Made by a program: the position numbers and the translations under genes
Notes under the pieces: generated by a model
Told to the model about the DNA's origin: nothing
The model's database searches: none
Seen by the model: the letters and a program-made list of their open reading frames with translations, nothing else
Origin: Planctomycetaceae bacterium
Lineage (GTDB): Bacteria > Planctomycetota > Planctomycetia > Planctomycetales > Planctomycetaceae
Length of the DNA: 27,791 nucleotides
Direction of reading: 5' to 3'
Assembly (NCBI GenBank): GCA_013813775.1
Contig: JACCRE010000081.1
Span: forward strand, 1 to 27,791
In this document: positions 3 through 23,800 of the stretch, in pieces
How positions within the stretch are numbered: the stretch's first letter is position 1
How the letters are laid out: the number at the start of each line of letters is the position of its first letter

Positions 3-1198
3 ATGGACGAGTCGGGATTGGGGTACGTCGAGGGACTGCGGCAGTGTCTGGCGGATGTGAAGGATCCCCGGGTCGTTCCGCGGTGTGATCATCAGCTTTT
101 GGACGTCGTCGCCATCGCGCCGTTGGCGGTGATGTGCGGGGCGGAGGATTGGCCCGACGTCGAAGAGTTCGGCGCGTCGCGACAGGACTGGCTGAAGACC
201 TTTCTGGAACTGCCGGGCGGCATCCCTTCGCACGACACGTTTCGACGCGTGTTCGGCCGGCTGGACCGCGGTCGGTTCGCCGCCGGCCTGTTCCTGTGGA
301 CGCAGGCCCTGCACGAGGCGACCGGCGGGAAGGTCATCGCCGTCGACGGGAAAGCGATGCGGCGGTCCTTCGCCAGGAAATCGGGACTGGCGATGCTGCA
401 TCTGGTGACCGCCTGGGCCACGGAGACCCACCTGACGCTGGGCCAGGTGGCACGGTGTGGACAGGTGGCCTGCGCGGAGAAGTCCAACGAGATCACCGCC
501 ATCCCCGAACTGCTCAAGCTGCTGAGCCTCAAGGGGAGCACCGTGACCATCGACGCGATGGGCTGCCAGTGCGATGGGCTGCCAGTGCGATGGGCTGCCA
601 GAAGGAGATCGCCTCGCAAATCCGCGAGCAGAAAGGGCATTACGTCTTGGGCCTGAAGGGCAACCAGCCCACGCTGGAAGCCGCCGCCGCGGCGTATTTC
701 GAGACCTGTCTGGAGACCGACTTCGTAGGCGTCGCGCACGAGGTCCATGAGTCGACCGAGACCGGCCACGGCCGCACCGAGACGCGGATCGTCCACGCGG
801 TCGAGTTGCCGGCCGACTTCCCGGGCCGCGCCGACTGGCCGGCTCTTCGCACGCTGGTGGTGGTGGCCAGCCGCCGCATGGTGCACGACGAGGAGTCGTG
901 GGAGTCGCGGCATTACATCACCGACCACGGCCCGCGGGCGAAGTTTCTGGGCAGCGCCGTCCGCCGGCACTGGGGGATCGAGAACGGCCAGCACTGGCTG
1001 CTGGACGTGACGTTCGGCGAAGACACTCGCCGCCAGCAGGATCGAAACGGGGCCGCCAACCTCGCCGCCGTCCGCCGCATGGCGCTGAGCCTGCTGCGTC
1101 AGGAGAAGACGAACACACGCGGCGTGAAGAACAAACGTCTCAAGTGCGCCCTCGATCCCGCCGACCTGCTGAAAGTCCTCGCCACAGCCAAGTTTTGA
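3..1198 (+). pseudogene. ISAs1-family DDE transposase, frameshifted by a 32-bp tandem repeat expansion
   Basis: The N-terminal part lies in frame 3 (ORF 3..656) and the C-terminal part in frame 2 (ORF 134..1198, meaningful from about 590). They join at the TIDAMGCQ/KEIASQ motif. Removing 32 bp (two extra 16-bp units) restores one ~388-aa ORF. ISAs1 transposases are single-ORF, so this is a disruption and not programmed frameshifting. Confidence 0.8.
558..601 (+). repeat. Three tandem copies of ATGGGCTGCCAG separated by TGCG (16-bp unit x2 + 12 bp)
   Basis: Read directly: atgggctgccag tgcg atgggctgccag tgcg atgggctgccag aaggag. The unit encodes the conserved MGCQ of the transposase. The extra 32 bp cause the frameshift. 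Confidence 0.95.
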
Positions 1199-1281: not shown

Positions 1282-3840
1282 CTAATCCGCACATGCGCGA
1301 ATTGCATCCGTGAGCAAGTGCTCATATTCGCTGTTTGACTCAGGATGGGCGCTGAACACAACGACCGTCCCACCTCCGAAACGCGTCGCCGCTATGGCGG
1401 GTGAGTGAACCATCATGTCCTTCTGAAAGGGGTACTTCGAGACCTCGGAGCGGTAGTACGCGAGTGGCTCATAGTCTGGGAGGTCCGGCTCGTTGGCCCG
1501 TGAAAGCACCGGTCCTCCCGTGTAGTCGAGAGTAAAGCTGCGTTTGGACGTCCCGAAAAGGCAATAGCCTTCAGACGTCATCTCGACAGAAATCTGCCCC
1601 CACCCCCGAAATGAAGCGCTAACGTATCCTTCATTCGGGACGAACCGCTGGCCTGAGACCACTTGCGCATTGATAAGCTTCAAACCCTGCTCGTGATTCG
1701 CGGAAGCTAGAAAACAGCCGGCACATATCCCGACATAACCACCTCCCTCGTGAACAAACCGACGGACGGCATCCTTGCCGTCGCTGCCGAGCGCGCTTCC
1801 TTGCACGCCAGCATTTCCGCCTGGTACGACGAGAACGTCGTAGTTGCCCAGTTCGCCGCGGCGGATATCGTCTTCCGACACGATGTTCAGCGACATTCGC
1901 GGTGCTTCCGTGATGACGTCATAGATTTCGTCTTCAGTCGGTATGGTCGTCTTATCGGGCACGAATAAGGCAACGGCTACACTTCGACCGGAATCTCGCG
2001 CTGCAACCATGTCGGCAATGAGTTGCCGTTGATCGCTTGATTGCACAGGCACTGCCGGGAGACCCATTGAACGCCGCACACGATTCGCGGCACTCGGATC
2101 GATTTTATAGACGTAAATCGAGTAGCCGACTCTCGCTACTGGTTTGAATTGGAGAAAATACCGATAACCACTCTCCGGACCGTAGATCTGCTGCACGCTC
2201 ATGACATGCCAGCCCGGCGCAGGGCTGCTAGACGGCGACTCTCCACGACTCCGTATTCCGAGTCGCTCAAGCGACACTGACCTCTCAAGAACCATGTAAG
2301 GTGAGTCGACATCAGGATGCGATTCGATCCATTTTTTCAGGTAGAAGTCATCCTGAGACCAACTGTGGCTGGAACCAAGCATGATCCGGTGTCCGCCGGC
2401 CGGCCCGCCTGCAATCTCATTGAAGTAAGACATCGAATGCGGGTAAACCGACAGGCTGCTGAGCACCGACCAGCCTAACGCACCTACAACGAGAGAAGAC
2501 GGAAGAACGCCGGCGCCAATCCAGTTTACGGCTTGGCCCAGCCAGACGAACATAAATGGAAACGCCGGCAGCAAGTAACGAAAATGGTGACTGAAACCGT
2601 CTTGAGAACTCACGAATATCAGCAGAGTGAGGGCTGGAGCCAAGACGACGACCACATCGATATGCCGCGCTTGTCCGAGTCCATCCGGTTCCGCCGTAGC
2701 GACAGCGCCTCGCGAGCGCGACTTCTTATAAAATCCGATGGTCGCGAGAACGCCTAGGCCCCAAGTCCCCAACGGAACCTTGAAGCATAGACCTATCAAA
2801 TAATAGTACCACCAACCGCGCTCCGACCACCTACCGAAGAGATACGATGGCCTGCCCTTCTCGAAGTCGACCTTCTGCAAATCCATCCCCTGGATGAACG
2901 GCCGCGGCAAAGGGATCGGAAGTCGGTGCAGGGGAGAACCTGTGAAACGATTTCCCATTTCGCTTGCGTCAGTCTCTCTTGCCGCGACAGAAGACTCCAC
3001 ACCGGAAAGAAGACGACTTTCGAACTGAAACTCGCCGAGCGGTTTGAACGTTCCCTCGAAGAAATAACCCAGATTCAGCACATAAAGGCCGAGCAACAGC
3101 ACGAACGTCATCCCGGCCGGCCGCGGTTTCGCAGTACCGCGAGCTTCCGCCGTTATGCGCCACAACAGCCATAAAAGAGGCCAGACCGCGAACAGCACGA
3201 TCCAGGTCATCTTCGACAACAGGGCGAGGCCCAGAAACAACCCAGCTACGGCCGCCCGGCCCCATGTCGGCGATCGCAACCATCGCCAGAAGAGATAGCC
3301 GGCCCCCAGGCCTATCGTCGCTGCGATGCCGTCGGTGCCGATCACCGACGACCACGCGAGAATGTTCGGCGAGAAGCACCACAACGTCAGCGCCACGAGC
3401 CCCGCCTTGCGACCATACAGTTCGGCGGCCCAGAGATAACAGAACAGCGCTCCAAGTGCTGTAAAGGGTAGAAGAGCCCAGCGGGCCGCGACCAAAAACT
3501 GCCGCCAGCGGTCTGGGTGCGATTCGACGAACTGGGCACCAAGCACGAACTCCGGGCGCGGCTGAGGGGCGCCCTCGAAATCGCCCCACAACTCCTCGTG
3601 AGCCATGAAGAGGATCGGCAATGTCGCCACGGCCCGCATCAGCGGCGGGTTGACGCAATAGAGGTCGAACGAGCCGTACTGCCACATCGCCATGCCGGCG
3701 GCGAGATGAGCCGGTTCGTCGACGTTCGGCGACTGCCGCGCCCCGAGCCAGCCGACAAGCGCGACCTGGATCGTGAGTAGTGTTGCGACGAAAACCGCAA
3801 CGGCGATATTGTTTCTTGTAAACCGTACCGAATGAAGCAA
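1282..3840 (-). CDS. Fusion protein: N-terminal polytopic GT-C glycosyltransferase (ArnT/PMT_2, GT39/GT83-like) + C-terminal class-I glutamine amidotransferase-like domain
   Basis: The N-terminal ~450 aa have many TM helices with an early periplasmic-loop DEPAH motif typical of ArnT/PMT-family GT-C enzymes. The C-terminal ~250 aa carry YDVLVVPGG...GGGYVGICAG (nucleophile-elbow Cys) and FSAHPE (His-Pro-Glu), the hallmarks of a GATase1 fold. It is one uninterrupted 852-aa ORF. Confidence 0.6.
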   Translation of the reverse strand: MLHSVRFTRNNIAVAVFVATLLTIQVALVGWLGARQSPNVDEPAHLAAGMAMWQYGSFDLYCVNPPLMRAVATLPILFMAHEELWGDFEGAPQPRPEFVLGAQFVESHPDRWRQFLVAARWALLPFTALGALFCYLWAAELYGRKAGLVALTLWCFSPNILAWSSVIGTDGIAATIGLGAGYLFWRWLRSPTWGRAAVAGLFLGLALLSKMTWIVLFAVWPLLWLLWRITAEARGTAKPRPAGMTFVLLLGLYVLNLGYFFEGTFKPLGEFQFESRLLSGVESSVAARETDASEMGNRFTGSPLHRLPIPLPRPFIQGMDLQKVDFEKGRPSYLFGRWSERGWWYYYLIGLCFKVPLGTWGLGVLATIGFYKKSRSRGAVATAEPDGLGQARHIDVVVVLAPALTLLIFVSSQDGFSHHFRYLLPAFPFMFVWLGQAVNWIGAGVLPSSLVVGALGWSVLSSLSVYPHSMSYFNEIAGGPAGGHRIMLGSSHSWSQDDFYLKKWIESHPDVDSPYMVLERSVSLERLGIRSRGESPSSSPAPGWHVMSVQQIYGPESGYRYFLQFKPVARVGYSIYVYKIDPSAANRVRRSMGLPAVPVQSSDQRQLIADMVAARDSGRSVAVALFVPDKTTIPTEDEIYDVITEAPRMSLNIVSEDDIRRGELGNYDVLVVPGGNAGVQGSALGSDGKDAVRRFVHEGGGYVGICAGCFLASANHEQGLKLINAQVVSGQRFVPNEGYVSASFRGWGQISVEMTSEGYCLFGTSKRSFTLDYTGGPVLSRANEPDLPDYEPLAYYRSEVSKYPFQKDMMVHSPAIAATRFGGGTVVVFSAHPESNSEYEHLLTDAIRACAD

Positions 3841-3871
3841 CGGTATTTTCGGCGAACGAAAAATCTTTCGC

Positions 3872-4885
3872 TTACCGCCTCCGCCACCAAATGAAAATCA
3901 GGATGCCCAGCACCACGACGACGTTCGCGACGATCAACGACAAGCGGCCCCAAAGCCGCTCCGGCTCGGATTGGTCCGCCGCCGCGATGACAGGTTCGGA
4001 CCTCGGGACCGGCCGCTCGCCGGAGTAGGCCGGCTTCTCCGACAACCCTTCGCCGTCCCAATAACCAACGATGCGATTGATGCGATAGTCGACGATGGCC
4101 GTGTTCACCGGAAGATCCATCGACGCCAAGGTGAAGCGTTCCGCTGGAATCGCGAGGCCGGTCTCGAAACCGTCGACGGAGATCCGCCGGCGCATCACCT
4201 CGTTGGGCTCGGTTCTCACGATGTCCACGCCTTTCGGAAATGGGTTTGCATCGCCGCCGGACGCGAAATCCGACGCGATCTCAATTCGCCCGCCTGGCCA
4301 CTCGATCGTCCTTCGATGGACGCGAAAGGACGGCTCCTCAATCCAGAAATCGGAGGTCGCTTCACCGGCGAAGCATCGCACACGCCAAACGTCCACGTCG
4401 TCCACCTGCTCATTGCCGAGAACCTCCATCCGGTCGCTGGTCTCGTACCAGAGGCAATCCTTGACCGTGGTGTCGGCGGCCATCAAGTCCGAGAGTCCCA
4501 GAATTCTCGGATCGAACGCCAGGTCGCCCCTCACTCCGACCGCACGCTCCATATCGTAGATATGGACATCTTCGTGCTTTTTCCTACGGAATCCGTGCAG
4601 TTCGTCACCATCGACGATGACTATTTCAACTTCATCCGCCCCTTTGCCGAACTGCTCGAATCGCCGTCGGTCCATGTCAAGTTCGATGACGCAGTCGACG
4701 CTACGGGACGGCTCCGGGGCGAGATACTCGATCGTCAGCGTCGCCTGCAGGCCGTCATGACGTGTGCGGGAGGATTCGACGCCGCGCAGCAATGCCATCG
4801 CCGAAGGGGTGTCCGCTGCCGATAGATTCAACGACGGAACCCCAACGATCGCCACGCATCCGATCATTGCCAAAAGTGATTTCAT
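3872..4885 (-). CDS. Hypothetical exported protein (paralog A1) with N-terminal signal peptide and C-terminal motif-TM-WWRRR tail anchor
   Basis: Shows an N-terminal signal peptide (MKSLLAMIGCVAIVGVPSLNLSAA). The ~280-aa domain is shared with ORF 5574..6644 (HIYDMERAVGVRGDLAFDPRILGLSD, EEPSFRVHRR, FTLASMDLPVNTA, VDYRINRIVGYWDGEGLSEKPAYSGERPV). The C-terminus reads DQSEPERLWGRLSLIVANVVVVLGILIFIWWRRR*. Confidence 0.6.
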   Translation of the reverse strand: MKSLLAMIGCVAIVGVPSLNLSAADTPSAMALLRGVESSRTRHDGLQATLTIEYLAPEPSRSVDCVIELDMDRRRFEQFGKGADEVEIVIVDGDELHGFRRKKHEDVHIYDMERAVGVRGDLAFDPRILGLSDLMAADTTVKDCLWYETSDRMEVLGNEQVDDVDVWRVRCFAGEATSDFWIEEPSFRVHRRTIEWPGGRIEIASDFASGGDANPFPKGVDIVRTEPNEVMRRRISVDGFETGLAIPAERFTLASMDLPVNTAIVDYRINRIVGYWDGEGLSEKPAYSGERPVPRSEPVIAAADQSEPERLWGRLSLIVANVVVVLGILIFIWWRRR

Positions 4886-4990
4886 CGACTCTCTCGGATC
4901 CTGGTGACCTCCGGCGACGCACGAGCAACATCACCGTCGCGGCCCAAAGGCCTGAAGTTTACAACGACGGCGCATTTGCAGCCGAATACG

Positions 4991-5416
4991 TTAGCCTTCA
5001 TCCGTCGGGCACTGAGCATCTCCGGTAGTCGTTTTCGCGGCCTGCGACCAGCCGCTCCATCCGCCGGCGGTGTAGACCACACATTTCTGGGGCTGAACCG
5101 AGGAGTCCAATTTGCATGTCTGACTTCGTTGACAGTCCGCCTGCACTTCCTTCGTAGAACCTGACGATGCGCTCACCGCTCCGTCCGGAAAGCTGTTGGT
5201 TTCGTAAACGCTGACTCCGCACCCGAGGCCGGCATTGGGGTTCGCGTTACTGCAGGCTGAAACCGCATCGGCCGGAATCGTCGCGCACAACTTCGTGCTC
5301 GGATTAGGCGCCTGACACGCCGTTGTTGCCCAGACCGCAACTTGCCCTCCCAAGACGACGGCACCGAATGCCGCCAAACCTCGCACTGACAAGATTCGCC
5401 TTCGCAGCTTACTCAT
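4991..5416 (-). CDS. Small secreted cysteine-rich protein (paralog P2), 8 conserved Cys, C-terminal CPTDEG
   Basis: The start is taken at MSKLRRRILSV (an AAAAAGGAG RBS lies 6 nt upstream, inside the longer listed ORF). It has a signal peptide ending VAVWATTACQ, 8 Cys, an NSFPDG motif and ends CPTDEG. It is a paralog of 6797..7207. Confidence 0.6.
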   Translation of the reverse strand: MSKLRRRILSVRGLAAFGAVVLGGQVAVWATTACQAPNPSTKLCATIPADAVSACSNANPNAGLGCGVSVYETNSFPDGAVSASSGSTKEVQADCQRSQTCKLDSSVQPQKCVVYTAGGWSGWSQAAKTTTGDAQCPTDEG

Positions 5417-5573
5417 CTCTCGCTCCTTTTTAGCAGACGAGGGACCGGAACTCCGGAGTTTGAACAAAGCTCTCACGGCGATTGGTGAGAAGCCTCAACC
5501 TGATATTCAGCTTGTGGGTCGAGCGGCGCGATTCCGATACCGATCACTGAACTCCTAAGCGTCGACATGACAC

Positions 5574-6644
5574 TTACCGCCTCCGCCACCAGATGAAAAT
5601 CAGGATGCCCAGAACCACGACGACGTTCGCGACGATTAACAACCACCGGCGCCAATGCCGCTCCGGCTCGGATTGGTCCGACGCTGCGATGACAGGTTCG
5701 GACCTCGCGACCGGCCGCTCGCCGGAGTAGGCCGGCTTCTCCGACAACCCTTCGCCGTCCCAATAACCAACGATGCGATTGATGCGATAGTCGACAACGG
5801 CCGTGTTGACGGGAAGGTCCATTGAAGCCAAAGTGAAGCGTTCTGAAGGAACATCCACGTCCGTTTCCAACTCATTCACAGTATAGACCCACTCTAAGTC
5901 TGCTTGTTCAGCTGGCATTTTGAACTTCCGGCTAGCAATCACTCGGCGAGGGAATGGTAGCTTTGGATCCGACGGATCGAATTCGGACTCGATTACGGTA
6001 ACTTTAAATGGTGTCTCAGTAATCCTTCGATGAACCCGAAATGACGGTTCCTCTACCCAGTACTCTGAGCTCGTGTCACCCCTTATAGCTTTTACCCGCC
6101 AAAGATTGACCTCTCCCGCACCCTCACTGCCCATAACCGTCAGTTCGTCGTCTTCTTCATACCACAGGCAATCCTTAACAGTGACATCACATGGCATGAT
6201 GTCGGAAAGCCCCAAGATCCGCGGGTCAAATGCTAAATCGCCTCGAACCCCCACCGCACGTTCGACATCGTAAATATGTACGTCTTCATTAGGTTTCCTT
6301 CGGAATCCTAAGAACTCATTGCCATCTCGAATAACAATTTGTCCGGGCACCTCCCCCGCGAATACTTCGGCCCTCCTTTTGATGGGTCCATTTATCTCGA
6401 TGAGGCAGTTAACCGTGGTGATGGGGGGCGGTGAAACATAACGTATTTCCAGCGTCATGCGCGCAGATTCATATCGAGTACGCGATAACTCTGCACCTTG
6501 CAGCAGCGCAGCTGGAGACGGCTGTTCACATTGCGATCCTTGGCAATAAGAAAGATGTATTGCGCAACAGAGAAGAAACCGAAAGGATGCCTTTTGGACG
6601 CGTCGGTGCATCTGAAAAAATTGAGATAAGCCCATTATACACAA
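5574..6644 (-). CDS. Hypothetical exported protein (paralog A2) with C-terminal motif-TM-WWRRR tail anchor
   Basis: It is collinear with A1 at roughly 55% aa identity, and its last ~90 codons are near-identical at DNA level. The start may be at 6644 or at the internal MHRRVQKASFRFLLCCAIHL (6611). Most of the gene is about 50% GC against about 63% in the flanks. Confidence 0.6.
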   Translation of the reverse strand: MCIMGLSQFFQMHRRVQKASFRFLLCCAIHLSYCQGSQCEQPSPAALLQGAELSRTRYESARMTLEIRYVSPPPITTVNCLIEINGPIKRRAEVFAGEVPGQIVIRDGNEFLGFRRKPNEDVHIYDVERAVGVRGDLAFDPRILGLSDIMPCDVTVKDCLWYEEDDELTVMGSEGAGEVNLWRVKAIRGDTSSEYWVEEPSFRVHRRITETPFKVTVIESEFDPSDPKLPFPRRVIASRKFKMPAEQADLEWVYTVNELETDVDVPSERFTLASMDLPVNTAVVDYRINRIVGYWDGEGLSEKPAYSGERPVARSEPVIAASDQSEPERHWRRWLLIVANVVVVLGILIFIWWRRR

Positions 6645-6796
6645 ATCCCTTGTCTACCATATATACATACTTTGAATCCGCTGGTCATTAAAGACGGAGG
6701 CCGTATTGATGCTGATTTGGCCAGCGCCGAACGGCCTCCGTTCTGAAACCAAGCCATTTGATTTCACGCAGCTATTCAAAGTGGCTGCAGCACTTT

Positions 6797-7207
6797 CTAT
6801 CCTTCATCCGTCGGGCACGTATTGTCACCAACTACGGTTTTATCTCCGGATTGATAGCCGCCCCAAGTAGTGCTCGATACACACTTCCTGGTTTCATCAT
6901 TCCACACGCAATATTTCCTCCGCCAACAGTCGGCTGCCTCTTCCTTTGTTGTCCCTGAAGCGGATTCTGCGCCTCCGTCTGGAAACTGATTTCGCTCAAA
7001 AGCGTCGTATAACAAAGTGCAAGTTGACTCCGAGCCGCTACAGGTATATGTCGTTTGCGCACTGGTACAAAATTTCGTGTTTGGATTTGGCACCTGGCAA
7101 GCCGATGTCGCCCAAACGACGAGTTGGTTTCCTAAGACGAGCATGCTAGCGATGGCGCATGCCGCCAATGCCGGTGTGGACAGAAATCTTTGTTTCGCCT
7201 TACTCAT
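6797..7207 (-). CDS. Small secreted cysteine-rich protein (paralog P1), 8 conserved Cys, C-terminal CPTDEG
   Basis: The start is taken at MSKAKQRFLS (an AAAAAGGAG RBS precedes it). Its ATG overlaps the stop of the upstream DUF1573 gene (GATGAGTAA). It has a signal peptide ending LVVWATSACQ, 8 Cys, NQFPDGG and ends CPTDEG. Confidence 0.6.
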   Translation of the reverse strand: MSKAKQRFLSTPALAACAIASMLVLGNQLVVWATSACQVPNPNTKFCTSAQTTYTCSGSESTCTLLYDAFERNQFPDGGAESASGTTKEEAADCWRRKYCVWNDETRKCVSSTTWGGYQSGDKTVVGDNTCPTDEG

Positions 7208-8411
7208 CTGCGTCTCCTTTTTCCAGCAAACGGTGAACAGGAACTCTGAGGGTTCGTACAACGCTCTCGCCGCCATCGGCGAGAAACTCCAACTCGATTT
7301 CCAAATCGCCGTCGAGCGCTGTCTCGCGACGCGGTGCGATGAACACCTTCAGCCGATGCTCTGACGCCGATTGCCGATCGTCACGTTCTGTCCGCACACC
7401 GTCGTCCGCCGCCGTGCTGCGGACATCGCGGATTCGCGCGGGGCGGCTCGTCGTGACTTTGATCTCCCTCGAAACTTCGCCGACTTCGTCGGAGCCGACG
7501 ACGATCATCGCCGGCCTGGCTTCCGCCGGGGCCTTATATTTCGCGAGCACGGGCACGCTGGACTTCGGGACCCGCTCGCTGTCGCTCGACAGGATGATCG
7601 AGCCGCTGAGCGACTTGCTTTGCGTGAACCGGGACAGGTCCAGGTCGACCTTGATTTCGACATCGGAATCGTTCGGCCGCTTCGGCAGAATTTCCGCGGT
7701 GAGAAAGCTGCTTGAAGAAGTGGCTTCAGAGATTTCCACATCGGTCGCCGCCTCCGGCACGACGCGAAAGGTGCGGCTCACGCGCTGCACCGCCAGACCG
7801 TCGATCACACCAAAATTCACCTCGCTCGGCGAGACCCGATAGTCGGGGATGATGTCCGCCCGCACGCCTAACGTGAGCGAACCCCGCTGACCTGGAGCGG
7901 CGGAGCCGTCGCGTGCTTCGTGGTAGCTGACGGTGACGCGACCCGAGGCCGTCACTTGCGCGGTTCCCGTCGTGAAACGGACCGGCAGCGGGAAGCGGGC
8001 ACCGGCTGCGATTGTCATCGGGCCCAACTCATCGTCGCCGGCGACGACACAATGGCAACTCGTCGTCAGCCCGTCGATTTTGACCGGCGCGTCTCCCTGG
8101 TTGACCAGGGAGAAGGTATGAGCGAGCTCTTCTCCCTGACGCTGCTCTCCGAAATCGTGCACGTTCGAGTCGACAACGGCCAATCCGAAATGTTTCGCTT
8201 CGTGACTCGCTTCACCGTCGGTGCAGCCCGCGAGAAGCCCAATCGATGCGACAAGAGCGGCCGGAATTATCGAAACGAGACCGATACGGCGAACAGTCAA
8301 TTCAGCATGGCATCTTGCATCCGAAAAAGTCACAAGAGATCGTCGCCGAGACCCGTCAACGAAGCCTTTTCGGCCCTCGCAACAACGGCCATCAAGGACG
8401 GCGGTTTTCAT
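7200..8411 (-). CDS. DUF1573-domain lipoprotein
   Basis: Has a lipobox-like LLAGC after a hydrophobic stretch. The sequence HDFGEQRQGEELAHTFSLVNQGDAPVKIDGLTTSCHCVVAG matches the DUF1573 pattern (hDFG..G......F...N.G..PL.I......C.C). Its stop overlaps the start of P1. The true start may be internal to the listed ORF. Confidence 0.55.
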   Translation of the reverse strand: MKTAVLDGRCCEGRKGFVDGSRRRSLVTFSDARCHAELTVRRIGLVSIIPAALVASIGLLAGCTDGEASHEAKHFGLAVVDSNVHDFGEQRQGEELAHTFSLVNQGDAPVKIDGLTTSCHCVVAGDDELGPMTIAAGARFPLPVRFTTGTAQVTASGRVTVSYHEARDGSAAPGQRGSLTLGVRADIIPDYRVSPSEVNFGVIDGLAVQRVSRTFRVVPEAATDVEISEATSSSSFLTAEILPKRPNDSDVEIKVDLDLSRFTQSKSLSGSIILSSDSERVPKSSVPVLAKYKAPAEARPAMIVVGSDEVGEVSREIKVTTSRPARIRDVRSTAADDGVRTERDDRQSASEHRLKVFIAPRRETALDGDLEIELEFLADGGESVVRTLRVPVHRLLEKGDADE

Positions 8412-11596: not shown

Positions 11597-12130
11597 CGAA
11601 GCATTCGAAGTCGGCTCTAGGCATGACTGCGAAGCCAACTCAGAGAGAATTCGCTTTAGGAGGGTCGGAACTCTTCTGCCAGCAGCCGCCCCCGTCGTCC
11701 GAGCGACGCTGACTCCAGCTTTGCAGACGTCGAAGTCGCTGCAACTTGCGCGGGCTGAGACTCTCCTGAGCGCGGAGTTGTGAGCGTGTGGCAGAGTGGG
11801 CGAAGCGGTCCTCGCCGCCCCACCGTGTCCTACTGACAATCGTCTATTGAGAGCAGGCCGCTGTTGAGGAACTGCTCATTCGCGGAAAGCGAAGTGGCGG
11901 ATGCAGGAAAGGCCGGCCAATCTCAGGGTGCCGCCGGTGAATCAGCTTGGCAAAGTTCAGGCTCCCCTAAACAACAAAGAAAACACTGTCATGTAGCCAA
12001 CTGTAGTTAATCCCACAAAACAATCGTTGATTCCGCTGAATTCGATGCCTTTGATCCGTCGCGGCAACACCGCGAATTGCCAGGGAATAGAACCTAAAAC
12101 GCGATTTTCTCGTTGCTGGCAGCTCACGCG

Positions 12131-12238
12131 GTCATCCATATCGTCGGTCAGGATCAGGAGCACGTTCGGCCGGTCAGCGCACACTTGCGAGACGAACGGG
12201 ATCAACAGAAGGAGCATCGCCAGCGATGGGCGGAGCAT
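12131..12238 (-). pseudogene. 5' remnant of a sulfatase gene (signal peptide + RPNVLLILTDDMD)
   Basis: MLRPSLAMLLLLIPFVSQVCADRPNVLLILTDDMDD matches the N-terminus of formylglycine-dependent sulfatases (signal peptide, then RPN[IV]hhIhsDD). Similarity stops after about 36 codons, and an AT-rich patch (about 11940-12110) follows. Confidence 0.5.
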
Positions 12239-12523
12239 CGAACGTTCTCCACAGGAAAAGTCACGCCATTGCCAAATCCAGAACGTGTCAGCCTGCCACA
12301 GCCGTGGGAAGAAATCGACTGCAACTGCCCCCGCGGCTCGTTAGACTCGTTGGAATCGGCCCGGCCGTTGCCATCGAAACGGGCGGAAGCACCTGCGGAT
12401 TCGCTCAGGATTTCCAGCCGGCGTGTGATCCGTGCCCGGCCGGCGTGCGTTCTCGAAGTGTCGCCGCGAAACGTGTCGCACAGTACAGCGTGTCGCCGGT
12501 CGGCGACACCGACGGAACATCCC

Positions 12524-13177
12524 ATGTCGGAAATCATCGACCTCCTCTTCGCGATCCCGACGCTGCCGGGAACGATCCTGCTTGGCGTGTGCCTTGTGTA
12601 CTGGCTCCTGCTCATTGCGGGAGCGGTGAGTCTCGACCTGCTGCATATCGATCTCGACCTCGACACCGACGTCAATCCCGACGCCGCCGGCACCAGTTGG
12701 GGCATGACGGCCTTCAAGTTTCTGAATATCAACGACGTTCCCCTCATGATCTGGCTCTCGATCTTCGCCGCGGCGTACGTCGCGATCGCCGGGGCCGCCG
12801 TGAGCATCCGGCCTGTCGGAGACGACCTCGGCGCCATCGCCGCCGCGATCGCTTGTTCCAGTGCGCTGGCCCTGATTGCGACGAAGCTTCTCACGCAGCC
12901 GTTGCGAGGCAAGTTCGAGGTCGTCGAACCGAACGTCGCCGAGACGCTCGTCGGCCGGACGTGCGTGATTACGACCGTTGAAGTCTCCGAACGATTCGGT
13001 CAGGCCAGCGTCGAGTCGGAAGGCGCTCCACTGTTGCTCAACGTGCGAGCGCCTGCTGAAACGCTTTCGAAGCATGATGTCGCGGTGATCACCGGTTTCG
13101 ACCGCGACCGCAACGTCTTCTTTGTGGAACCCGTCGCCGCCGTCCCCTCCGAACCGCCTACGCGGGAAGCCGTCTAA
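12524..13177 (+). CDS. NfeD/YqiJ-like inner-membrane protein (flotillin partner) with C-terminal OB-fold
   Basis: The start is taken at MSEIIDLLFAIPTLPGTILLGVCLVYWLLLIAGA (the listed ORF has an unsupported 137-codon GC-rich leader). There are four or five TM helices, then NfeD-like beta/OB C-terminus GRTCVITTVEV...VAVITGFDRDRNVFFVEP. Its stop overlaps the flotillin ATG (TAATG). Confidence 0.65.
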   Translation: MSEIIDLLFAIPTLPGTILLGVCLVYWLLLIAGAVSLDLLHIDLDLDTDVNPDAAGTSWGMTAFKFLNINDVPLMIWLSIFAAAYVAIAGAAVSIRPVGDDLGAIAAAIACSSALALIATKLLTQPLRGKFEVVEPNVAETLVGRTCVITTVEVSERFGQASVESEGAPLLLNVRAPAETLSKHDVAVITGFDRDRNVFFVEPVAAVPSEPPTREAV

Positions 13178-15210
13178 TGTCGCTAACCTTGATTCCTGCC
13201 GCCACTTTGGAAGTCGTCGGCCTGGCCGTCGCCGCGGTCGTGGCCGCACTGTTCGTGCTGATCGCGGTCGGCTCGCTCTTTTCGAAGTTCTACCGCAAGG
13301 TCGGACCGGAAGAGGCGATCGTCATCAGCGGCAAGGGCGGCTTGCGAGCCGCGTCCGGCGAAGGCACCTGGGTCATCCCCGTGCTGCATCGCGCGGAGCA
13401 CATGGACCTGTCGGTCAAGCGAATCGAGATTCATCGCAAGGGCGAAAGCGGCCTGATCTGCAAAGACAACATTCGGGCCGACATCGAAGTCGCGTTCTTC
13501 GTGCGGGTCAATAACTCGAAGGAAGCGATCCTGCAGGTCGCCCAGAGCCTCGGCTGCAAACGCGCGAGCGATCGACTGGCCTTGATCGAGCTGTTCGACG
13601 CCAAATTTTCGGAGGCGCTCAAGACCGTCGGCAAGCACTTCGAGTTCGTCGAGTTGTTCGTCGAACGCGACAAGTTCAAGGAGCAAATTCTCAAGGTCAT
13701 CGGCACTGACCTGAACGGATACGTGCTCGATGACTGCGCGATCGATATTCTCGAACAAACGCCGGTCGAGAAGCTCAATCTCAATAACATTCTCGACGCC
13801 GAGGGCATCAAGAAAATCACCGAGCTGACGGCCCGCGAGCATATGCGGTCGAACGAGATCGCCCGCGAAAAAGAGAAGGTCATCAAGAAGCAGGACGTCG
13901 AAGCCGCTGAGGCGATCTATCAGCTCGAAAAGCAGCGGGTCGAGGCCCAGGAGAAGCAGAAACGGGAGATCGCCGCCATCACCTCTCGCGAAGAGGCCGA
14001 GGCCGCCAAAATTCGCGAAGAAGAGCGCCTGCGCGCCGAGTCGGCCCGCATCCGCACCGAAGAAGAGCTGCAAGTCGCCGAGCAGAACAAGGACCGCCAG
14101 ATCGTCGTCGCTCGCAAGAGCAAGGAACGCACCGAAGCGGTCGAGACCGAACGCGTCGAGAAAGATCGCTTGCTCGAAGTCACCGAACGCGAACGAGTCG
14201 TCGGACTCGCCTCGATCGCCAAAGAAAAAGAGATCGAAGCCGAGAAGCGCGACATCCAGGAGGTCATCCGCGAGCGGGTCACCGTCGAGCGCACGGTCGT
14301 CGAAGAACAGCAACGCATCAAAGACACCGAAGAGTTCGCGACGGCCGATCGTGTCAAGCGCGTGGCCGTGACGAAGGCCGAACAAGAGGCCGAACAACAG
14401 CTCGTGATGAAGGTCAAGGAGGCCGAAGCCTCGAAGCGAGCCGCGGAGCTTCACTCCGACCAGATCGTGATCGAGGCCGAGGCTCAGAAGAAGAGCGCCG
14501 AGCGCGAAATGGCGGCCACGAAGATGCACGCCGAAGGTAAGCAGGCCCAGCATGCCGCCGAAGGGCTCGCGGAAGCTCAGGTCATCTCCGCCAAGGCCGA
14601 CGCCCTCGAAAAACAAGGCACGGCTGAGGCTGAAGTGCTCAAGCTCAAGTTCGTCTCCGAGGCCGAAGGCATTCGCGAGAAGGCCGAGGCGATGAAGCTC
14701 TTCGACGGCGTCGGCAAAGAGCACGAAGAGTTCAAGCTGCGGCTCAATAAGGACAAAGACATCGAGATCGCCGCGATCGACGCCCAGCGCCAGATCGCCG
14801 ATGCCCAGAGCCGCATCGTCGGCGAGGCGCTCAAGAGCGCGAAGATCGACATCGTGGGCGGCGAAACCACCTTCTTCGACAAGATCGTCGACTCGATCAC
14901 CAGCGGCAAGCGCATCGACCGCATGGTCGAAGGCAGCCGCACGCTCACCGACGTCAAAGACACGTTTTTCAACGGCGACGGCGAGCATTTCCAGACGCAA
15001 CTCCGCCAGTTCGTCGGACGCTTCAACATGAGCTTCGACGACATCAAGGATCTGTCGGTCGCGGCGCTCGTGGGTCGAATGATTTCGATGGCCGACGACG
15101 ACAGCGAGCGGGGCCAACTCAAGCGGCTGCTCAACGCCGTCCGCGGCAGCGGGTCGGCCGATAAACGAGTGTCTTCGCTGGGACTCAATCGCGAGCCGGC
15201 GAAGAACTGA
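13177..15210 (+). CDS. Flotillin-family SPFH/band-7 protein (FloT/YqiK-like) with long EA-rich coiled coil
   Basis: Has an N-terminal TM anchor, then the SPFH core (EEAIVISGKGG...VIPVLHRAEHMDLSVKRIEIHRKGESGLICKDNIRADIEVAFFVRVN), then about 300 aa of Glu/Ala/Lys/Arg-rich heptad repeats typical of flotillins. The NfeD partner lies immediately upstream with 1-nt overlap. Confidence 0.85.
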   Translation: MSLTLIPAATLEVVGLAVAAVVAALFVLIAVGSLFSKFYRKVGPEEAIVISGKGGLRAASGEGTWVIPVLHRAEHMDLSVKRIEIHRKGESGLICKDNIRADIEVAFFVRVNNSKEAILQVAQSLGCKRASDRLALIELFDAKFSEALKTVGKHFEFVELFVERDKFKEQILKVIGTDLNGYVLDDCAIDILEQTPVEKLNLNNILDAEGIKKITELTAREHMRSNEIAREKEKVIKKQDVEAAEAIYQLEKQRVEAQEKQKREIAAITSREEAEAAKIREEERLRAESARIRTEEELQVAEQNKDRQIVVARKSKERTEAVETERVEKDRLLEVTERERVVGLASIAKEKEIEAEKRDIQEVIRERVTVERTVVEEQQRIKDTEEFATADRVKRVAVTKAEQEAEQQLVMKVKEAEASKRAAELHSDQIVIEAEAQKKSAEREMAATKMHAEGKQAQHAAEGLAEAQVISAKADALEKQGTAEAEVLKLKFVSEAEGIREKAEAMKLFDGVGKEHEEFKLRLNKDKDIEIAAIDAQRQIADAQSRIVGEALKSAKIDIVGGETTFFDKIVDSITSGKRIDRMVEGSRTLTDVKDTFFNGDGEHFQTQLRQFVGRFNMSFDDIKDLSVAALVGRMISMADDDSERGQLKRLLNAVRGSGSADKRVSSLGLNREPAKN

Positions 15211-15286: not shown

Positions 15287-18200
15287 GTGTTCCGAACCGC
15301 CATGTCCGACGCCGCTCCCGCCGAAACGCTCGACCGCGGCACGTATGAACTGCTTCGCGAGCGATTGCGGGGGCACGGCCGCGAGCTTGCCGAGCGGGTC
15401 GAGAAACTCAATGCCGCACGGAAGGCGACCTTCGGCGGTGTCGAACCTGAACTCGCCGCGACGGAACGCATTTCGACCGAGCACAACTGCGTGCCGCGCG
15501 ACATCGCGGCGGTCGGCGGAACGCTGCTGTTCGGATTCAACGTTCATTTCGGGCTGAAGGCCGAGCGATCTCCCGCCGACGTCTTCGCCGCATACAGCTT
15601 CTCCGAAAGTCGCTTCCATCCGCGGGCGCTCGACTTGCTCGACGACGCGGCGTTTCAGAAGGACTTCAAGGACGTCTATCGGTTCTACAAAGACGCCTCT
15701 TTCGAAAAGTTCGTCAGCCGCGGTCCGCTGCTCTACATGCAGCTTCGCACCGGCCCGGGCGAAGGCGATATTAAGACCTTCAAGTGGGCGGCCGTCGGCG
15801 ACTTGTTGAAGTACGTCGACAACCGCAGCGATCACGAACTGCGGCTTCCGCCCCAGCATGAATTCGATTGGCGGCGACCTCGCCGGGAAGACCACGTCTA
15901 CGGGAAGCACCCGCACGTCAATGTCGCCGACAAAACCTTCGTCGAAACGATCGGCGGCGATCTGACGATCAAGATCGAGAACAACACCGACACCGGCCAG
16001 GGCATCTATGCCGAGCCGGTCGAGAACGCCGATCAGACGCTCGACGACGCGGAGATCCGCTACGCCACTTTCAGTTCGCTCGTTCTTCTGAAGATCAAAC
16101 CCTATCAGGAGGCAGGTGATCGCCACATCGTCTACTGCGAGAAAACCCGCCGGGCCATTCGGCTCGACGGCATCTCCAACTGTTGCCGTTTGCTGCCCGC
16201 CGACCAGGGCATCATCTATCCCGCTGGTTATCTGCTGCACACCGGCGATGGCAAATCCTTCGACGGCGTACCGGAGCACGCCAACTTTGAGCAGCGGATC
16301 GACGCGCCGAACGGCGAAGATTTCCTATATATCTTCTACGACCGCACCGCGGGGCTGTACGTTCTCATCCGCTACAATGTGATCGCGCAAGCGGCCGATC
16401 CGCCGCTGCTGTGCCACGGGTACACGTTGTTTTCCGGGGGCGAGCTCGTTTGCTTCCGCGCGCAGCCAGAATCGCAGCGGCATCATGCGATTCAAATCTG
16501 GCGAACGCCTTTCACCGCCGAAGCATTGCTGCCGGAGGCCGACTCGAGCTCCGACCTGTTCAAGATCGGCAATCGCGAAATCGTTCACGGCCTGTCGGAA
16601 TGCCACGAAATCCTCACGCTGCTCGATAAGGAAGACACGTTCGGCGATCTGTACGCCGAGGTCGCTCAACGGGCCGGCGATCTGCTCGATAGCTACTACT
16701 GGATTCGCAGCCCGGCGACGTTCCGGCTCGACGAATCGCTTGAGCAAGTTCGGTCGGCGGCGTCGGCGGCGATCGACGAGTACGTCAAAGTCGCGCGGGC
16801 TCGCGAAAACGCGAAACAGCAGACGGAAGCCCTGCAGGGCCGCGTCGGCGAGGCGGTCGCGACGGCAAATCGACGGGCCTATGAATCTGTCGCCGACTTC
16901 ACGGCCTCGCTCGCGGAGCTTCGCACGCTGCGCGGCGAAGCGATCGGCCTGCGTGAGGTGCGCTACGTCGATCCGACGGTGATCGACGCTCTCGAACAAA
17001 CGCTGGCCGCGGAGTCGGAGCGGATCGCCGGTCGTTGCATCGCCTTTCTCGACCGGCCGGACGCGCTTGCTCCCTTTGCGACGACGCTTCAAGAGGAACG
17101 GGGCAAGCTCGACGGCATCAAGACGGCTCGTGATGCCAAGGAGTCGGACGAGCGGGTCGCCAAGGTCGCCGCCGATCTCGAATTGCTGATCGAAACGGTC
17201 TCGAACCTGCCGATCGAAGACGCGACGCAACGCACCCGAGTCGTCGACGCGGTGTCGGCCGTGTTCGCCACCGTCAACACGTTGCGAGCCGAGATCCGCA
17301 ATCGTCGGAAAGCTCTCGCCACGACCGAAGGCGCAGCCGAGTTCGGATCGCAGCTCAAACTGATGTCGCAAGCCGTCGTCAACGCACTCGATCGGTGTGA
17401 GACGCCGGAAAAGTGCGACGAACAATTCTCCCGCCTCTTGTTGCAAGTCGAGGAGTTGGAAGGCCGCTTCGCGGAGTTCGACGAGTTCGCGGTCACGCTC
17501 GCCGAGAAGCGGGAAGAAATCGCCTCGGCCTTTGAAACGCGGAAGACGTCGCTGCTGGAGGCCCGCGCCAAGCGATCGGGCTCGCTGGCGGCTGCGGCGG
17601 AGCGGCTGCTCGGCGGCATCGGCTCGCGGGCGAAGACGCTGGATTCGGCCGACGCGATTCAGGGCTATTTCGCCGGCGATCTGACCGTCGCCAAGGTGCG
17701 CGACCTCGCCGGTCAACTATCCGGTCTCGGCGACGCCGTCCGTGCCGACGGATTGCTCACGCGGCTGAAATCGCTTCGCGACGATGCGATCCGCCAGCTC
17801 AAGGATCGACAGGACCTCTTCGCCGAAGGTCCGGGAGTCATCAATCTCGGCGGCTATCGGTTCGGCGTGAACACGCAGCCGATCGATCTCACGACGGTCG
17901 TTCGCAACGGCCAACCGCAACTCCACCTGACCGGCACGCGGTTCTACGAGCCGGTCGATGACGCCGAGTTGCTGGCCGCTCGCGAGTGCTGGGATCAGGA
18001 ATACGTTTCGGAAACTGCCGAAGTCTATCGCGGAGAGTTTCTGACACACTCCTTGTTCGTCGAAGCCGCCGAGGCTGGCATGCTCAAGAAGGTGGCAAAG
18101 TTCGCCGATGCCGAACTGGCGATCTGGGTCGCCGAACGCATGGCTCCGCGCTACTCCGAAGGCTACATGAAAGGAGTCCACGACCGCGACGCGGCGGCCA

Positions 18201-20818: not shown

Positions 20819-23800
20819 TTATTGCGGAGCCGGTGCGAACGAAGACGCCGGTTTGCGATCGAGGAGCTTCCTCAGTGGATCGCCCACCTGCTTCTCGATC
20901 TCGCGATTCAGAATGCCATTGACCGCTCCCGTCGCCGCGCGACGCGCCAGGTCTTGCAGGGCTCGCGGATCGGGGGCCGGGCGTGAGAGCGTTCCGCGGA
21001 TCGGCACCCGTAGCGACTGACCCCCTAGCGCCGTTGCGACGCGTTCATCCTTGAACCATTGCGCGTCGAGCGGAATCTCAGCGATGAGATCGATCGATTC
21101 ATCGAAGCCGACGCTGCCGGATGTCGAGACGATCGGTCCGTCGGCGTCGCCGAGTCGGACGGCGAAGCGGTCGTGGTGCACGCGGCCGCCTGCGATGCGA
21201 AGACGAACCGCTTGCTGTGGAGCGACGAGCCGCAGGTCGGAGCCGCTCGTCGCATCGCGACCGGCGATCCGTCGGACTTGCCCGATCACGTCGATGAGCG
21301 ATCGGGCGAATGGACCTGGAGTCGCATCGAGTCCCGCGATGAGCAGCGTCGCTTCGGCGTGCGTTTCCGTCGGTGCCGCAAGCGGCGCGGTGCAGGAATC
21401 GACTTCGAGTGACGCGGTGCCTTGCACGGTGGCGGCATCGGCGAGCGTCGGCGTCGCGTATCGCAGCCACCGGCTGCACATCTCGGCCGTGACCGTGATC
21501 GAGTCGGCGATTCTGCCCGGCGCAAGCCGTAACGGAAATCGGCCGTTCAGTTCTGCAGAGGCTGAACCCCGCATTCGGCCTTTTCCGACCGGCCAGTCAA
21601 ACCGCTCGAACTCGAGCGAACCTCGCTCCAGTCGGGCTGAAAGCTCCCCGCTCCCGACGGCCAAGCCATAAACGTCGAGCGAATCCCAGCCGAAACCTGC
21701 CCGAGCCGTTAGACCCGGATCGACGATTCCGGCACCAAACAACGGGCCGCGGAGAGCAAACGGTTTCGCTCCCCGCCCTTTCGCGATCACGTCCGCCGGC
21801 CACGCGTGAATTCGCGGTGCGAGCAGGGGCAGATCATAGCTCAGACCCGCCGTCAGATCGGCGCTCCCACTCGAACTGACGTGATCCAGGCGTCCTTTGG
21901 CATCCACCCCGATCCCACTTGCGACGATCCGCATGGCCGTGACATCCAATGCGTCGCCCAGGCGGTGATAACGGGCCGTCAGTGACACTTCGGCGCGGTC
22001 ATCCGACCAGAGCGGGCGCCACTCGACTCGACCGCCCGCCAATTCCAGAGGCTTCGTCAGCACGGGACGCTCGAACTCGAACTTCGCATCGACGAGCGTG
22101 GCCGTCGCGTCCGACTTCAGATCCGCCGTGCCCTGCACGACACCAGAAACCCAGACGGGAGGCCGCGAGGGGAGTACGTATCGGGCGAGCCGGCCGATCC
22201 CGCCACGAATCTCGAAGTGCCCCGATACCGCCTTGTCGGTCGTCAGCGGCCAGTGGATCCCGGTCCCATCGATCATCGCCGACTCGCTCGTGAACTTCGC
22301 GGTCGGAACGGTCAGCAGTCCCGACGAGAGATTCCAGGAGGCGTTGCCCGTCAGCCGAGCGACAGGCTCGTCGAACATCCGGTTCGCGAAGCCCAGGCGA
22401 AAGTTCTTCGACTCCGCATCGAGGCTGCTCACTCTTAATGACGATCCTGCGAAAGCGATCTCAGCCTTGGCGTCGATCTGGCCGGCGATCGTCCACGAGG
22501 TCGCCTCGGGAAGAAGTCTCCACGCGCGGGCACGATTGAACCAACGCGTCGAGTCCCCCTTGGCCGTCACGGAGAGCTTCCAGTTCGCCCCCGTGGCGAG
22601 CCGGACCGGTTCCATCAGAACGGCACGGACTTCATCTTTTTCGACGCTTTGCAGGGAGATCGTTCCCGAACGGATCTCCGTCACGCCGCTTTGAGTTCCC
22701 TCGCATTCGGCGGAGGCATGGAAGCTCAGTTCCCGTTCCGTCCAACGGCGTCCCGCTAGGCTCAGCATCAGATCGCGGACGGCCCCGGTGGCATCGACAT
22801 CGAAAACCTTGTCCGCAGCGCCACGTTTGATCGTAATTCGACCCTCGGCACGACCTGCGAGGGCATCAGCGGGCAACTCGACGAACCGCGAAAGATTCTC
22901 TCGCAGCCGATCGAGATCCGTGTCAAACGTCAGTTCGGCCGCTGTCGCCGACCCTGCGCCTCGTAGCGTCAGAAACTCTGATTCGGCATGAGCGCTTTCG
23001 ACGGTCAGGCCCGACTCCGTTTGCACCGCCACGAGGTCGAATGCGAACGGCTGACGCCAGACGATCGGATTCTCGGCCGAACCGGCGACGATGTCCGAGG
23101 CTCGCAGCCGAATGGTCCCTCGACGGCGGCCTTCCTCGCCGGACGATTTTACGTCGATCGCCAGCGTGCCCGACTGCACCGGCTGCCGGAGCCGCAGGGA
23201 CTCGGGAAGCGCAGCGGCAATGCTTTTCAGGTCCGCCGAGCAGTTCAACGAGAACTCGTTTGCGAGCAGCGCCTCTACCTGCGGAAGCAGACCATTTTCC
23301 GATAACAGCGTTCCCAGATCGAAGCTGCCGTTCACGGTCGCTGTGCCGACATCACTGGAAAGCTCGAGGTCATCAAGCGTGAGAAGAGAGCCATCGGCGG
23401 ATGCGCGTCCCGCAAGCGACGCCTCTTCGAGCAACAAGGGATGCGCGTCGCTGACGCCGACTCGCTCGAATCGCATTCGTCGTCCCGCGACTCGACCGTC
23501 GACATTCCAGGAGGAGCCGTCGGCCGGCGCAGTGACTAGAACGTCTGCCGTTGCGGTTCCAGTGACGCGTGCCGCGACCTCGAAACGATCGAGCCACGAC
23601 TGGAGCGCCCCGAGCGGCAGATCTTTGGCGACGACGGAGACGTGTGGTTCCGCGTCGCGCCCGTCTCGCCTCACCGATCGCACGGTGAAGGTTCCGGGGT
23701 GCTCGCCGTCGGTCAGCGTCCCGCCAAGCTCGATGTGATCGGGAAGCGAATCGCCGGCGTTGCGGCTGATCGTCGCCGAGACGTCCTTCAGCGAACCGGC

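Follow-up and report, generated by a model that had tools for sequence, protein, structure and literature searches.

The region considered here lies on contig JACCRE010000081.1 of the Planctomycetaceae bacterium assembly GCA_013813775.1, of which positions 1–27,791 of the forward strand (27,791 nucleotides, nt), below called the window, were analyzed. Six open reading frames (ORFs) on the minus strand, within window positions 1282–8411, follow one another in the order D, P1, A2, P2, A1, and G. They encode a DUF1573 lipoprotein (D), two secreted eight-cysteine proteins (P), two membrane-tethered periplasmic proteins (A), and a putative glycosyltransferase fusion (G). The region is a locally duplicated part of an envelope operon conserved in Planctomycetota, D-P-A(-G), and the products of all four gene families appear, by their sequences, to be exported or membrane proteins. 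A preliminary description of the same DNA had reported a tandemly duplicated P-A cassette downstream of a DUF1573 lipoprotein, and the ORFs lie where it had placed them: P1 and P2 are 43% identical (BLASTP E 8e-34), A1 and A2 58% (E 2e-134). The features of the region are as follows.

7200–8411, minus strand: D, DUF1573 lipoprotein; longest ORF 403 amino acids (aa), with an immunoglobulin (Ig)-like DUF1573 domain and an SCHC (CxC) motif
6797–7207, minus strand: P1, secreted eight-cysteine protein of 136 aa; signal peptide to about residue 34, mature domain of about 100 aa
6690–6743, minus strand: GC-rich stem-loop ACGGAGGCCGU...ACGGCCUCCGU, then CUUUAAU, in the spacer between P1 and A2
5574–6644, minus strand: A2, LolA-fold periplasmic protein of 356 aa counted from a TTG codon; C-terminal membrane helix at residues 334–352, then RRR
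5573–5870, minus strand: second copy of a repeated tract, at the 3' end of A2 and at the downstream edge of the low-GC P1-A2 segment
4991–5416, minus strand: P2, secreted eight-cysteine protein of 141 aa, the second paralogue type
3872–4885, minus strand: A1, LolA-fold periplasmic protein of 337 aa; signal peptide, disordered linker, C-terminal membrane helix, RRR
3871–4168, minus strand: first copy of the tract, at the 3' end of A1; a 298-nt direct repeat, 90% identical to 5573–5870
1282–3840, minus strand: G, 852 aa; predicted polytopic GT-C glycosyltransferase with a C-terminal class I glutamine-amidotransferase-like (BPL_N/DJ-1-like) domain

As for the start codons, D most likely begins at the in-frame TTG at 8300; the protein would then open with the lipoprotein signal MTVRRIGLVSIIPAALVASIGLLAGC and the lipobox LLAGC, and its 366 aa fit the homologues of 356–385 aa. 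The stop codon of D overlaps the start codon of P1 (ATGAGTAA), and P1 is 136 aa long, one residue shorter than previously stated. A2 probably starts at the ATG at 6635 or 6611 rather than at the TTG. Public gene calls at A2 and P1 look imperfect: the database form of A2 has 294 aa and lacks the signal peptide, the exact 136-aa P1 is missing from the protein collection, where only a 154-aa version is present, and the P proteins are unnamed in every source.

The spacer between P1 and A2 folds with a predicted energy of −52.2 kcal/mol (z −4.5), and none of 200 shuffled sequences was equally stable; the spacer between P2 and A1 has no counterpart of this stem-loop (z 0.25). The structure may be an attenuator or a processing site and could lift the expression of P above that of A. 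The promoter scan of the window reported no promoter-like sites and 12 terminator-like sites, with 8.1 expected, and neither the Rfam nor the tRNA scan of the window gave matches.

The conserved operon and its local duplication

A total of 50-odd related loci were retrieved, and every ORF in them was scored with the P and A profiles and with D and G of the window. The conserved unit is D, one to three copies of P, and A, followed by G in one clade; the P-A pair is not the basic unit. The gene orders are the following.

D-P-A-P-A-G: this window
D-P-A-G: L003, L007, L011, and L014/L050
D-P-P-P-A-G-GT87: L005/L006
D-P-A-P-P: L047
D-P-A without G (lower-GC group): L004, L019, L023–L025, and L029

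D stands immediately upstream of the first P in 14 independent loci, P immediately upstream of A in about 19, and A immediately upstream of G in 9. The tie with D looks like the tightest one for P, made by overlapping stop and start codons (ATGAGTAA or ATGA) in five independently called loci, namely the window, L047, L050, L005, and L054, the last with a remote P. Profile searches thus support the conservation of P-A pairing raised in the preliminary description, with the corrections that the real unit is D-P-A(-G) and that the ratio of P to A is not 1:1 (three P and one A in L005, P-P without A in L001, and P-A-P-P in L047). In L004, L019, and L024, A is followed by unrelated genes on the same strand. 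The profile missed a divergent P that is present in L040, and Schlesneria paludicola has an orphan A beside remnants of insertion sequences (IS). Evolutionary distances of P and A correlate (r 0.70), in a way inseparable from shared ancestry. A description of the operon was not found in the searchable literature.

As for a restriction to one phylum, raised as a point to check in the preliminary description, every named relative of the stand-alone A family belongs to Planctomycetota. A full D-P-A-G operon also occurs in L003 (JAJFIP010000046.1), in a metagenome-assembled genome labelled Emcibacter sp. (Alphaproteobacteria); because all named relatives are from Planctomycetota, this contig is likely mis-binned. 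Upstream of D in L005 (5344–7677) there are genes for extracytoplasmic function (ECF) sigma factors and a second, short DUF1573 gene, and Ser/Thr kinase genes adjoin the operon in L005, L007 (13279–14319), and L050 (3436–8085). These neighbors may represent a regulatory context or a coincidence in kinase-rich genomes.

Within the window, DNA identity between the two cassettes is about 50–55%, save for the 298-nt tract at 90% in the 3' ends of A1 and A2. The low identity outside the tract suggests that the P-A duplication is old. Recent gene conversion or recombination would explain the tract better than selection, because the linker and membrane helix encoded in it vary between species. The P1-A2 segment (approximately 5834–7240) has a GC fraction of about 0.50, compared with about 0.60 elsewhere in the window, D and P2-A1 included; together with its downstream boundary at the tract, this suggests replacement of the cassette from a lower-GC lineage. 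The locus that carries the closest P1-type gene, L003, has an overall GC fraction of about 0.50.

Both P genes are preceded by AAAAAGGAG-N6-ATGAGTAAG, the shared ribosome-binding context pointed out in the preliminary description. Ahead of P2 it looks like a relic of the 3' end of D, which would place the start of the duplicated unit inside the end of D. In L047, a P2-type/A1-type pair (62% and 66% identity) comes right after D and is followed by a P1-type gene. Both P types therefore predate the split between the organisms of the window and of L047, and their order can differ. With its two diverged P-A sets, the window probably holds two variants of P, each with its own A partner.

The duplication and the pairing of P with A had suggested a diversifying system, and the varying copy number of P and the signs of cassette exchange agree with that part of the suggestion. 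In its specific form, P would be a secreted effector and A its membrane-bound protector, as in a toxin-immunity, bacteriocin-immunity, or adhesin-receptor cassette. The tandem P-A sets, the gene-conversion tract, the low-GC P1-A2 segment, and the transposase or conjugative-element genes beside several loci fit such a cassette. It is nevertheless very improbable: P and A do not occur one to one, neither Pfam, NCBIfam, nor PADLOC gives a toxin, immunity, or defence match, the linkage to D, joined by G in one clade, is stable and looks vertical, and P keeps one common framework in place of a variable toxin tip and has no relative in viral contigs.

As for the surroundings, mobile DNA lies beside L007 (integrase, TraG-D_C, ParA, and RPA genes), and an IS transposase occupies the position of D-P upstream of A in L010/L012. 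In the window itself, a DDE_Tnp_1 transposase ORF of 354 aa (134–1198, plus strand) is found directly past the 3' end of G. Farther away, a YqiJ_N membrane protein (354 aa) and a 677-aa coiled-coil flotillin/SPFH-like protein without Pfam match are encoded at 12113–15210 (plus strand), which explains the strong AT skew at 14001–15000. They are followed by a 1792-aa protein with DUF3686 (by annotation a DNA-repair ATPase), DUF7902, and AAA_5 (15287–20665, plus strand) and, beside it, by a 1173-aa ORF without Pfam match (20819–24340, minus strand).

The P, A, and G proteins

P1 and P2 share VWAT(S/T)ACQ, N(Q/S)FPDG, the C-terminal CPTDEG, and eight cysteines that align with the same spacing, all of which had been read correctly from the sequence. 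A single-sequence search for P homologues returned 2 matches and a profile search 31 clusters, and an exhaustive hidden Markov model (HMM) search of 1.84 billion representatives returned 165 proteins, the best 150 of which are 72–189 aa long, mostly 115–150 aa. Each of the eight cysteines is kept in 157–163 of the 163 aligned sequences. The wider family also conserves PNP, FPDG, G-x-T, and the final C-P, while WAT and TDEG are confined to the near subfamily; CPTDEG, earlier called invariant, is not. P begins with an ordinary Sec signal peptide, in which Ala is frequent at −1. The earlier view of P as a secreted protein stabilized by disulfides is supported.

P1 and P2 have no Pfam or NCBIfam match, the only Pfam signal at E ≤ 1 being a noise-level DUF2374 (E 0.15). 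Structure prediction for P, proposed as a check in the preliminary description, gave a confident AlphaFold2 model with a mean predicted local distance difference test (pLDDT) score of 88, blocks of 96–98 over most of the mature domain, and a core of about 97. The predicted fold has no match among solved structures, and on this evidence P would be a new family without a recognizable structural relative. Several known categories were considered for P and rejected. It does not look like a lipoprotein, as the residue before the first cysteine varies (A in 31, Q in 22, D in 20, P in 18, and others, among 159 sequences) and there is no lipobox. It is not a YTV wall protein according to Pfam, where no YTV match appears even at E ≤ 1. 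It has neither the prepilin leader (G/FxxxE) nor the alpha-beta fold of type IV pilin-like proteins. No relative among viral contigs marks it as phage-borne.

These properties bear on the possibility that the P paralogues build up, as subunits, some structure of the surface or cell wall (a fibre, a sheet, or a crateriform component), for which D would be an Ig-like, PapD-like assembly factor and A a membrane platform. The one to three tandem P paralogues per locus resemble sets of major and minor subunit genes, the stem-loop behind P1 could favor expression of P over that of A, and cysteine-rich wall proteins are known in Planctomycetes (PMC8567305). We nonetheless regard this role as improbable, given that P bears no pilin signature, that its fold matches neither pilins nor other polymer subunits, that it has no YTV match, and that the operon contains no usher, secretin, or other export machine.

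Neither A1 nor A2 has a Pfam or NCBIfam match at E ≤ 1, and no PDB sequence was found by the A profile; among 51 homologues, a weak match to DUF2092 appears in 6 and to LolA_like in 2. A2 matches the HMM of the A family with E 8e-135. The model of A (pLDDT 90.8) is an open antiparallel beta-sheet half-barrel with an internal helix, as in the LolA fold, and its best fold matches are LolA3, LolA, and LolB. The earlier statement that neither P nor A belongs to a recognized family therefore stands for P and, as far as sequence families go, for A, but A has a predicted LolA-superfamily fold. On the strength of this model, A appears to be a new member of the LolA fold class, an orphan by sequence and unusually anchored.

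Its membrane anchoring at the C-terminus, noticed before, is supported by an N-terminal signal peptide, a C-terminal membrane helix, and an RRR tail that are kept across the family, and the helix would hold A at the inner membrane. After the disordered linker, the helix follows the pattern R-x-x-L-I-x-x-(N/G) and then Arg residues, while the stretch upstream of it is variable apart from one Arg. Such conservation suggests that the helix packs in a specific way and is more than a passive anchor. The C-terminus is not one of the known sorting signals (PEP-CTERM, LPXTG, or similar), for which NCBIfam gives no match at E ≤ 1. The family has motifs of its own, DPRxLGL, WIEEPSFR, and DYRxxRxxGYWDG, and most of its conserved positions hold charged or polar residues (D125, D266, W276, RR, DPR, and WIEEP).

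Searches for A gave 92 homologous clusters, all the named ones being from Planctomycetota except one Limisphaerales protein that joins an A-like domain to TlpA. Six independent proteins (L034, L035, L036, L041, L043, and P0093) combine a distant A-like domain with TlpA/Redoxin, and the WCGPC motif of L036 is intact. Distant A-like domains are also fused to an N-terminal ECF sigma factor in L035 and L041, to a BlaR1 M56 transducer in L042, where a BlaI-like gene lies upstream, and to a YkuD L,D-transpeptidase in L046. The variety of architectures suggests that A domains work as a periplasmic binding module that can be reused, and the family of A-like domains is undescribed as far as found in the literature.

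A LolA-type fold next to a lipoprotein could also indicate a lipoprotein-handling module, in which A binds the acyl chains of D and retains, positions, or hands over a D-P complex with P as a bound passenger. The lipobox of D is canonical (its Cys is present in 13 of 15 homologues, and the signal of D in the window ends in LLAGC), LolA3, LolA, and LolB are the closest folds to A, and D and A occur together even without P (L044 and L045). This explanation is unlikely all the same. Being tethered to the membrane, A would not shuttle as LolA does; its mostly charged or polar conserved residues do not resemble a plain greasy groove, and A-like domains are found in sensors and enzymes that have no lipoprotein partner.

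According to Pfam, G matches BPL_N (E 1.5e-14) and PMT_2 (E 3.2e-6; 27.9 bits, barely above the cut-off of 26.1). It has no PMT (PF02366) or PMT_4TMC match, and its homologue in L006 has a weak PMT match. NCBI names such proteins either "glycosyltransferase family 39" or "BPL-N domain-containing". The acidic DE motif of the first extracytoplasmic loop, SPN(V/I)DE(P/V/T)AHL, is present in 6 of 7 aligned homologues. In the C-terminal domain, which also gives weak DJ-1 matches, GGGYxGxCAG (with the nucleophile-elbow Cys) and S(A/P)HPE are conserved, one homologue having HSE, and a Cys-His-Glu triad can be recognized. Because motifs are conserved in both, the two halves of G look catalytically competent, and G would be a GT-C enzyme of the GT39/PMT_2-like type whose fusion partner has no precedent.

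The presence of G raises the question of whether the locus is a dedicated protein-glycosylation cassette, with G using a polyprenyl-phosphate sugar to glycosylate P (or D) in the periplasm and the LolA-like groove of A holding the lipid-linked donor. The NCBI name, the PMT_2 match, and a conserved DE(P)AH similar to the DE motif of PMT speak for it, as do the adjacency or overlap of A and G, the GT87 gene that comes next in L005/L006, and the binding of lipid tails by LolA-type folds. On balance it seems doubtful. D-P-A occurs without G in at least five independent loci (L004, L019, L022, L024, and L029), with housekeeping or convergent opposite-strand genes after A; P has no invariant Ser or Thr (V can take the place of T88, and I or V that of T125), and it lacks the Ser/Thr/Pro-rich linker typical of O-mannosylation sites.

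A candidate redox site in D and the proposed role of the operon

D matches Pfam DUF1573 (PF07610) with E 5e-14 (52.5 bits, cut-off 26.1), and its NCBIfam matches to choice_anch_D and to the OS_HP2 (seleno)protein are both below the cut-off, the latter with 33.8 bits against 100. The motif (S/T)-S-C-x-C, with SC[GHSTR]C at its core, is invariant in the alignment of 15 D homologues, and in D of the window this pair comprises the only cysteines besides that of the lipobox. By an accepted criterion, a residue that is selenocysteine in some homologues and cysteine in others is taken to be redox-active. DUF1573 corresponds to the OS_HP2 selenoprotein family, whose selenocysteine forms carry UxC/UGC (PMC2398784; PMC9312934; PMC13188914). 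Because homologous selenoproteins carry UxC/UGC at this type of motif, the CxC of D is likely a redox-type site, and it points to redox chemistry instead of the adhesin-receptor or toxin-immunity function suggested in the preliminary description.

Tentatively, and aware that it may well prove wrong, we read the operon as a periplasmic module for thiol-disulfide maturation and assembly of P, to which glycosylation is added as an extra. D and the first P would be made together through translational coupling. The CxC of D would act as a dedicated thiol-disulfide catalyst or chaperone that forms or shuffles the four disulfides of P in the periplasm, and folded P would be received by the membrane-tethered A, serving as a client- or ligand-binding module. 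In the clade with G, either P or a lipid-linked partner held by A might be glycosylated or otherwise processed at the membrane, and P would end as an envelope or secreted protein, either structural or a ligand. In favor of such a pathway stand the recurring gene order, the overlap of D stop and P start codons, the invariant CxC of D, the conserved cysteines and confident model of P, the conserved catalytic motifs of G, and the direct fusion of A-like relatives to TlpA-type thioredoxins.

Several points weigh against thiol-disulfide maturation of P. The D-P and P-A contacts are putative, and the CxC of D was equated with the selenoprotein UxC by motif and by the OS_HP2 match region. The same CxC could bind a metal instead, and P could be folded by general Dsb enzymes, with no need of a dedicated catalyst. 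The A-like domains fused to TlpA are only 22–35% identical to A, and their loci contain neither P nor D. The pair D-A stands without P in L044 and L045, and A stands alone in L049 and L052. Finally, a crude hydropathy count did not place the amidotransferase-like domain of G on either side of the membrane.

A bolder version, which we hold to be rather unlikely, makes D-P-A a new periplasmic oxidative-folding or redox relay of non-thioredoxin parts. An Ig-like lipoprotein with a selenocysteine-replaceable CxC would act on a four-disulfide client of new fold, and the LolA-fold domain of A would serve, in Planctomycetota and Verrucomicrobiota, as a general module that docks clients for thiol chemistry outside the cytoplasm.

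The envelope of Planctomycetes is still not well understood, and a large share of their proteins lacks annotation. The present analysis defines a conserved, self-contained envelope operon, gives the orphan A protein a predicted fold, flags a likely redox site in the widespread DUF1573, and yields in P a compact, confidently modelled disulfide-rich protein without structural relative. If the thiol-disulfide role is true, it would provide a first function for DUF1573 and an example of a LolA-fold domain serving protein clients rather than lipids; if glycosylation is the actual function, the operon would contain a bacterial enzyme of the GT39-like type together with an acceptor to which it is genetically linked.

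Comparison with known systems

In terms of proposed logic, the closest parallels to D and P are the DsbD N-terminal domain and Mia40 (CPC), in which small clients with several disulfides are handled, in an oxidising compartment, by a non-thioredoxin domain with a close cysteine pair. The DsbD N-terminal domain also partners with TlpA/CcmG-type thioredoxins. The likeness would be one of analogy, and no homology is claimed; in contrast to these relays, the D-P-A operon has no identified recycling partner equivalent to DsbB, Erv1, or the membrane domain of DsbD. In comparison with DUF1573/OS_HP2, an uncharacterized family, D matches the domain and has the family CxC, but it is a long lipoprotein with about 240 extra residues that have no family match.

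A shares the fold of the LolA/LolB superfamily, in particular of its LolA_like/DUF1329/LolA3 branch (PDB 9tp6, 4z48, and 3bk5), at 8–11% identity. Members of the superfamily are soluble or N-terminally lipidated, whereas A is anchored by a C-terminal helix and has polar motifs of its own. LolA3 itself is of unknown function (PMC13103446).

As for PMT/GT39 and ArnT (PMT_2) enzymes, G shares with them the polytopic N-terminal domain, a borderline PMT_2 match, and the DE-x-x-H of the first loop, and it differs by the C-terminal amidotransferase-like domain with its Cys-His-Glu triad, which is not present in characterized PMT or ArnT proteins. The YTV proteins, found only in Planctomycetales, are secreted cysteine-rich envelope proteins (PMC8567305). 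P is likewise secreted and cysteine-rich, but, in contrast to these repeat proteins, it consists of a single compact domain of about 100 residues.

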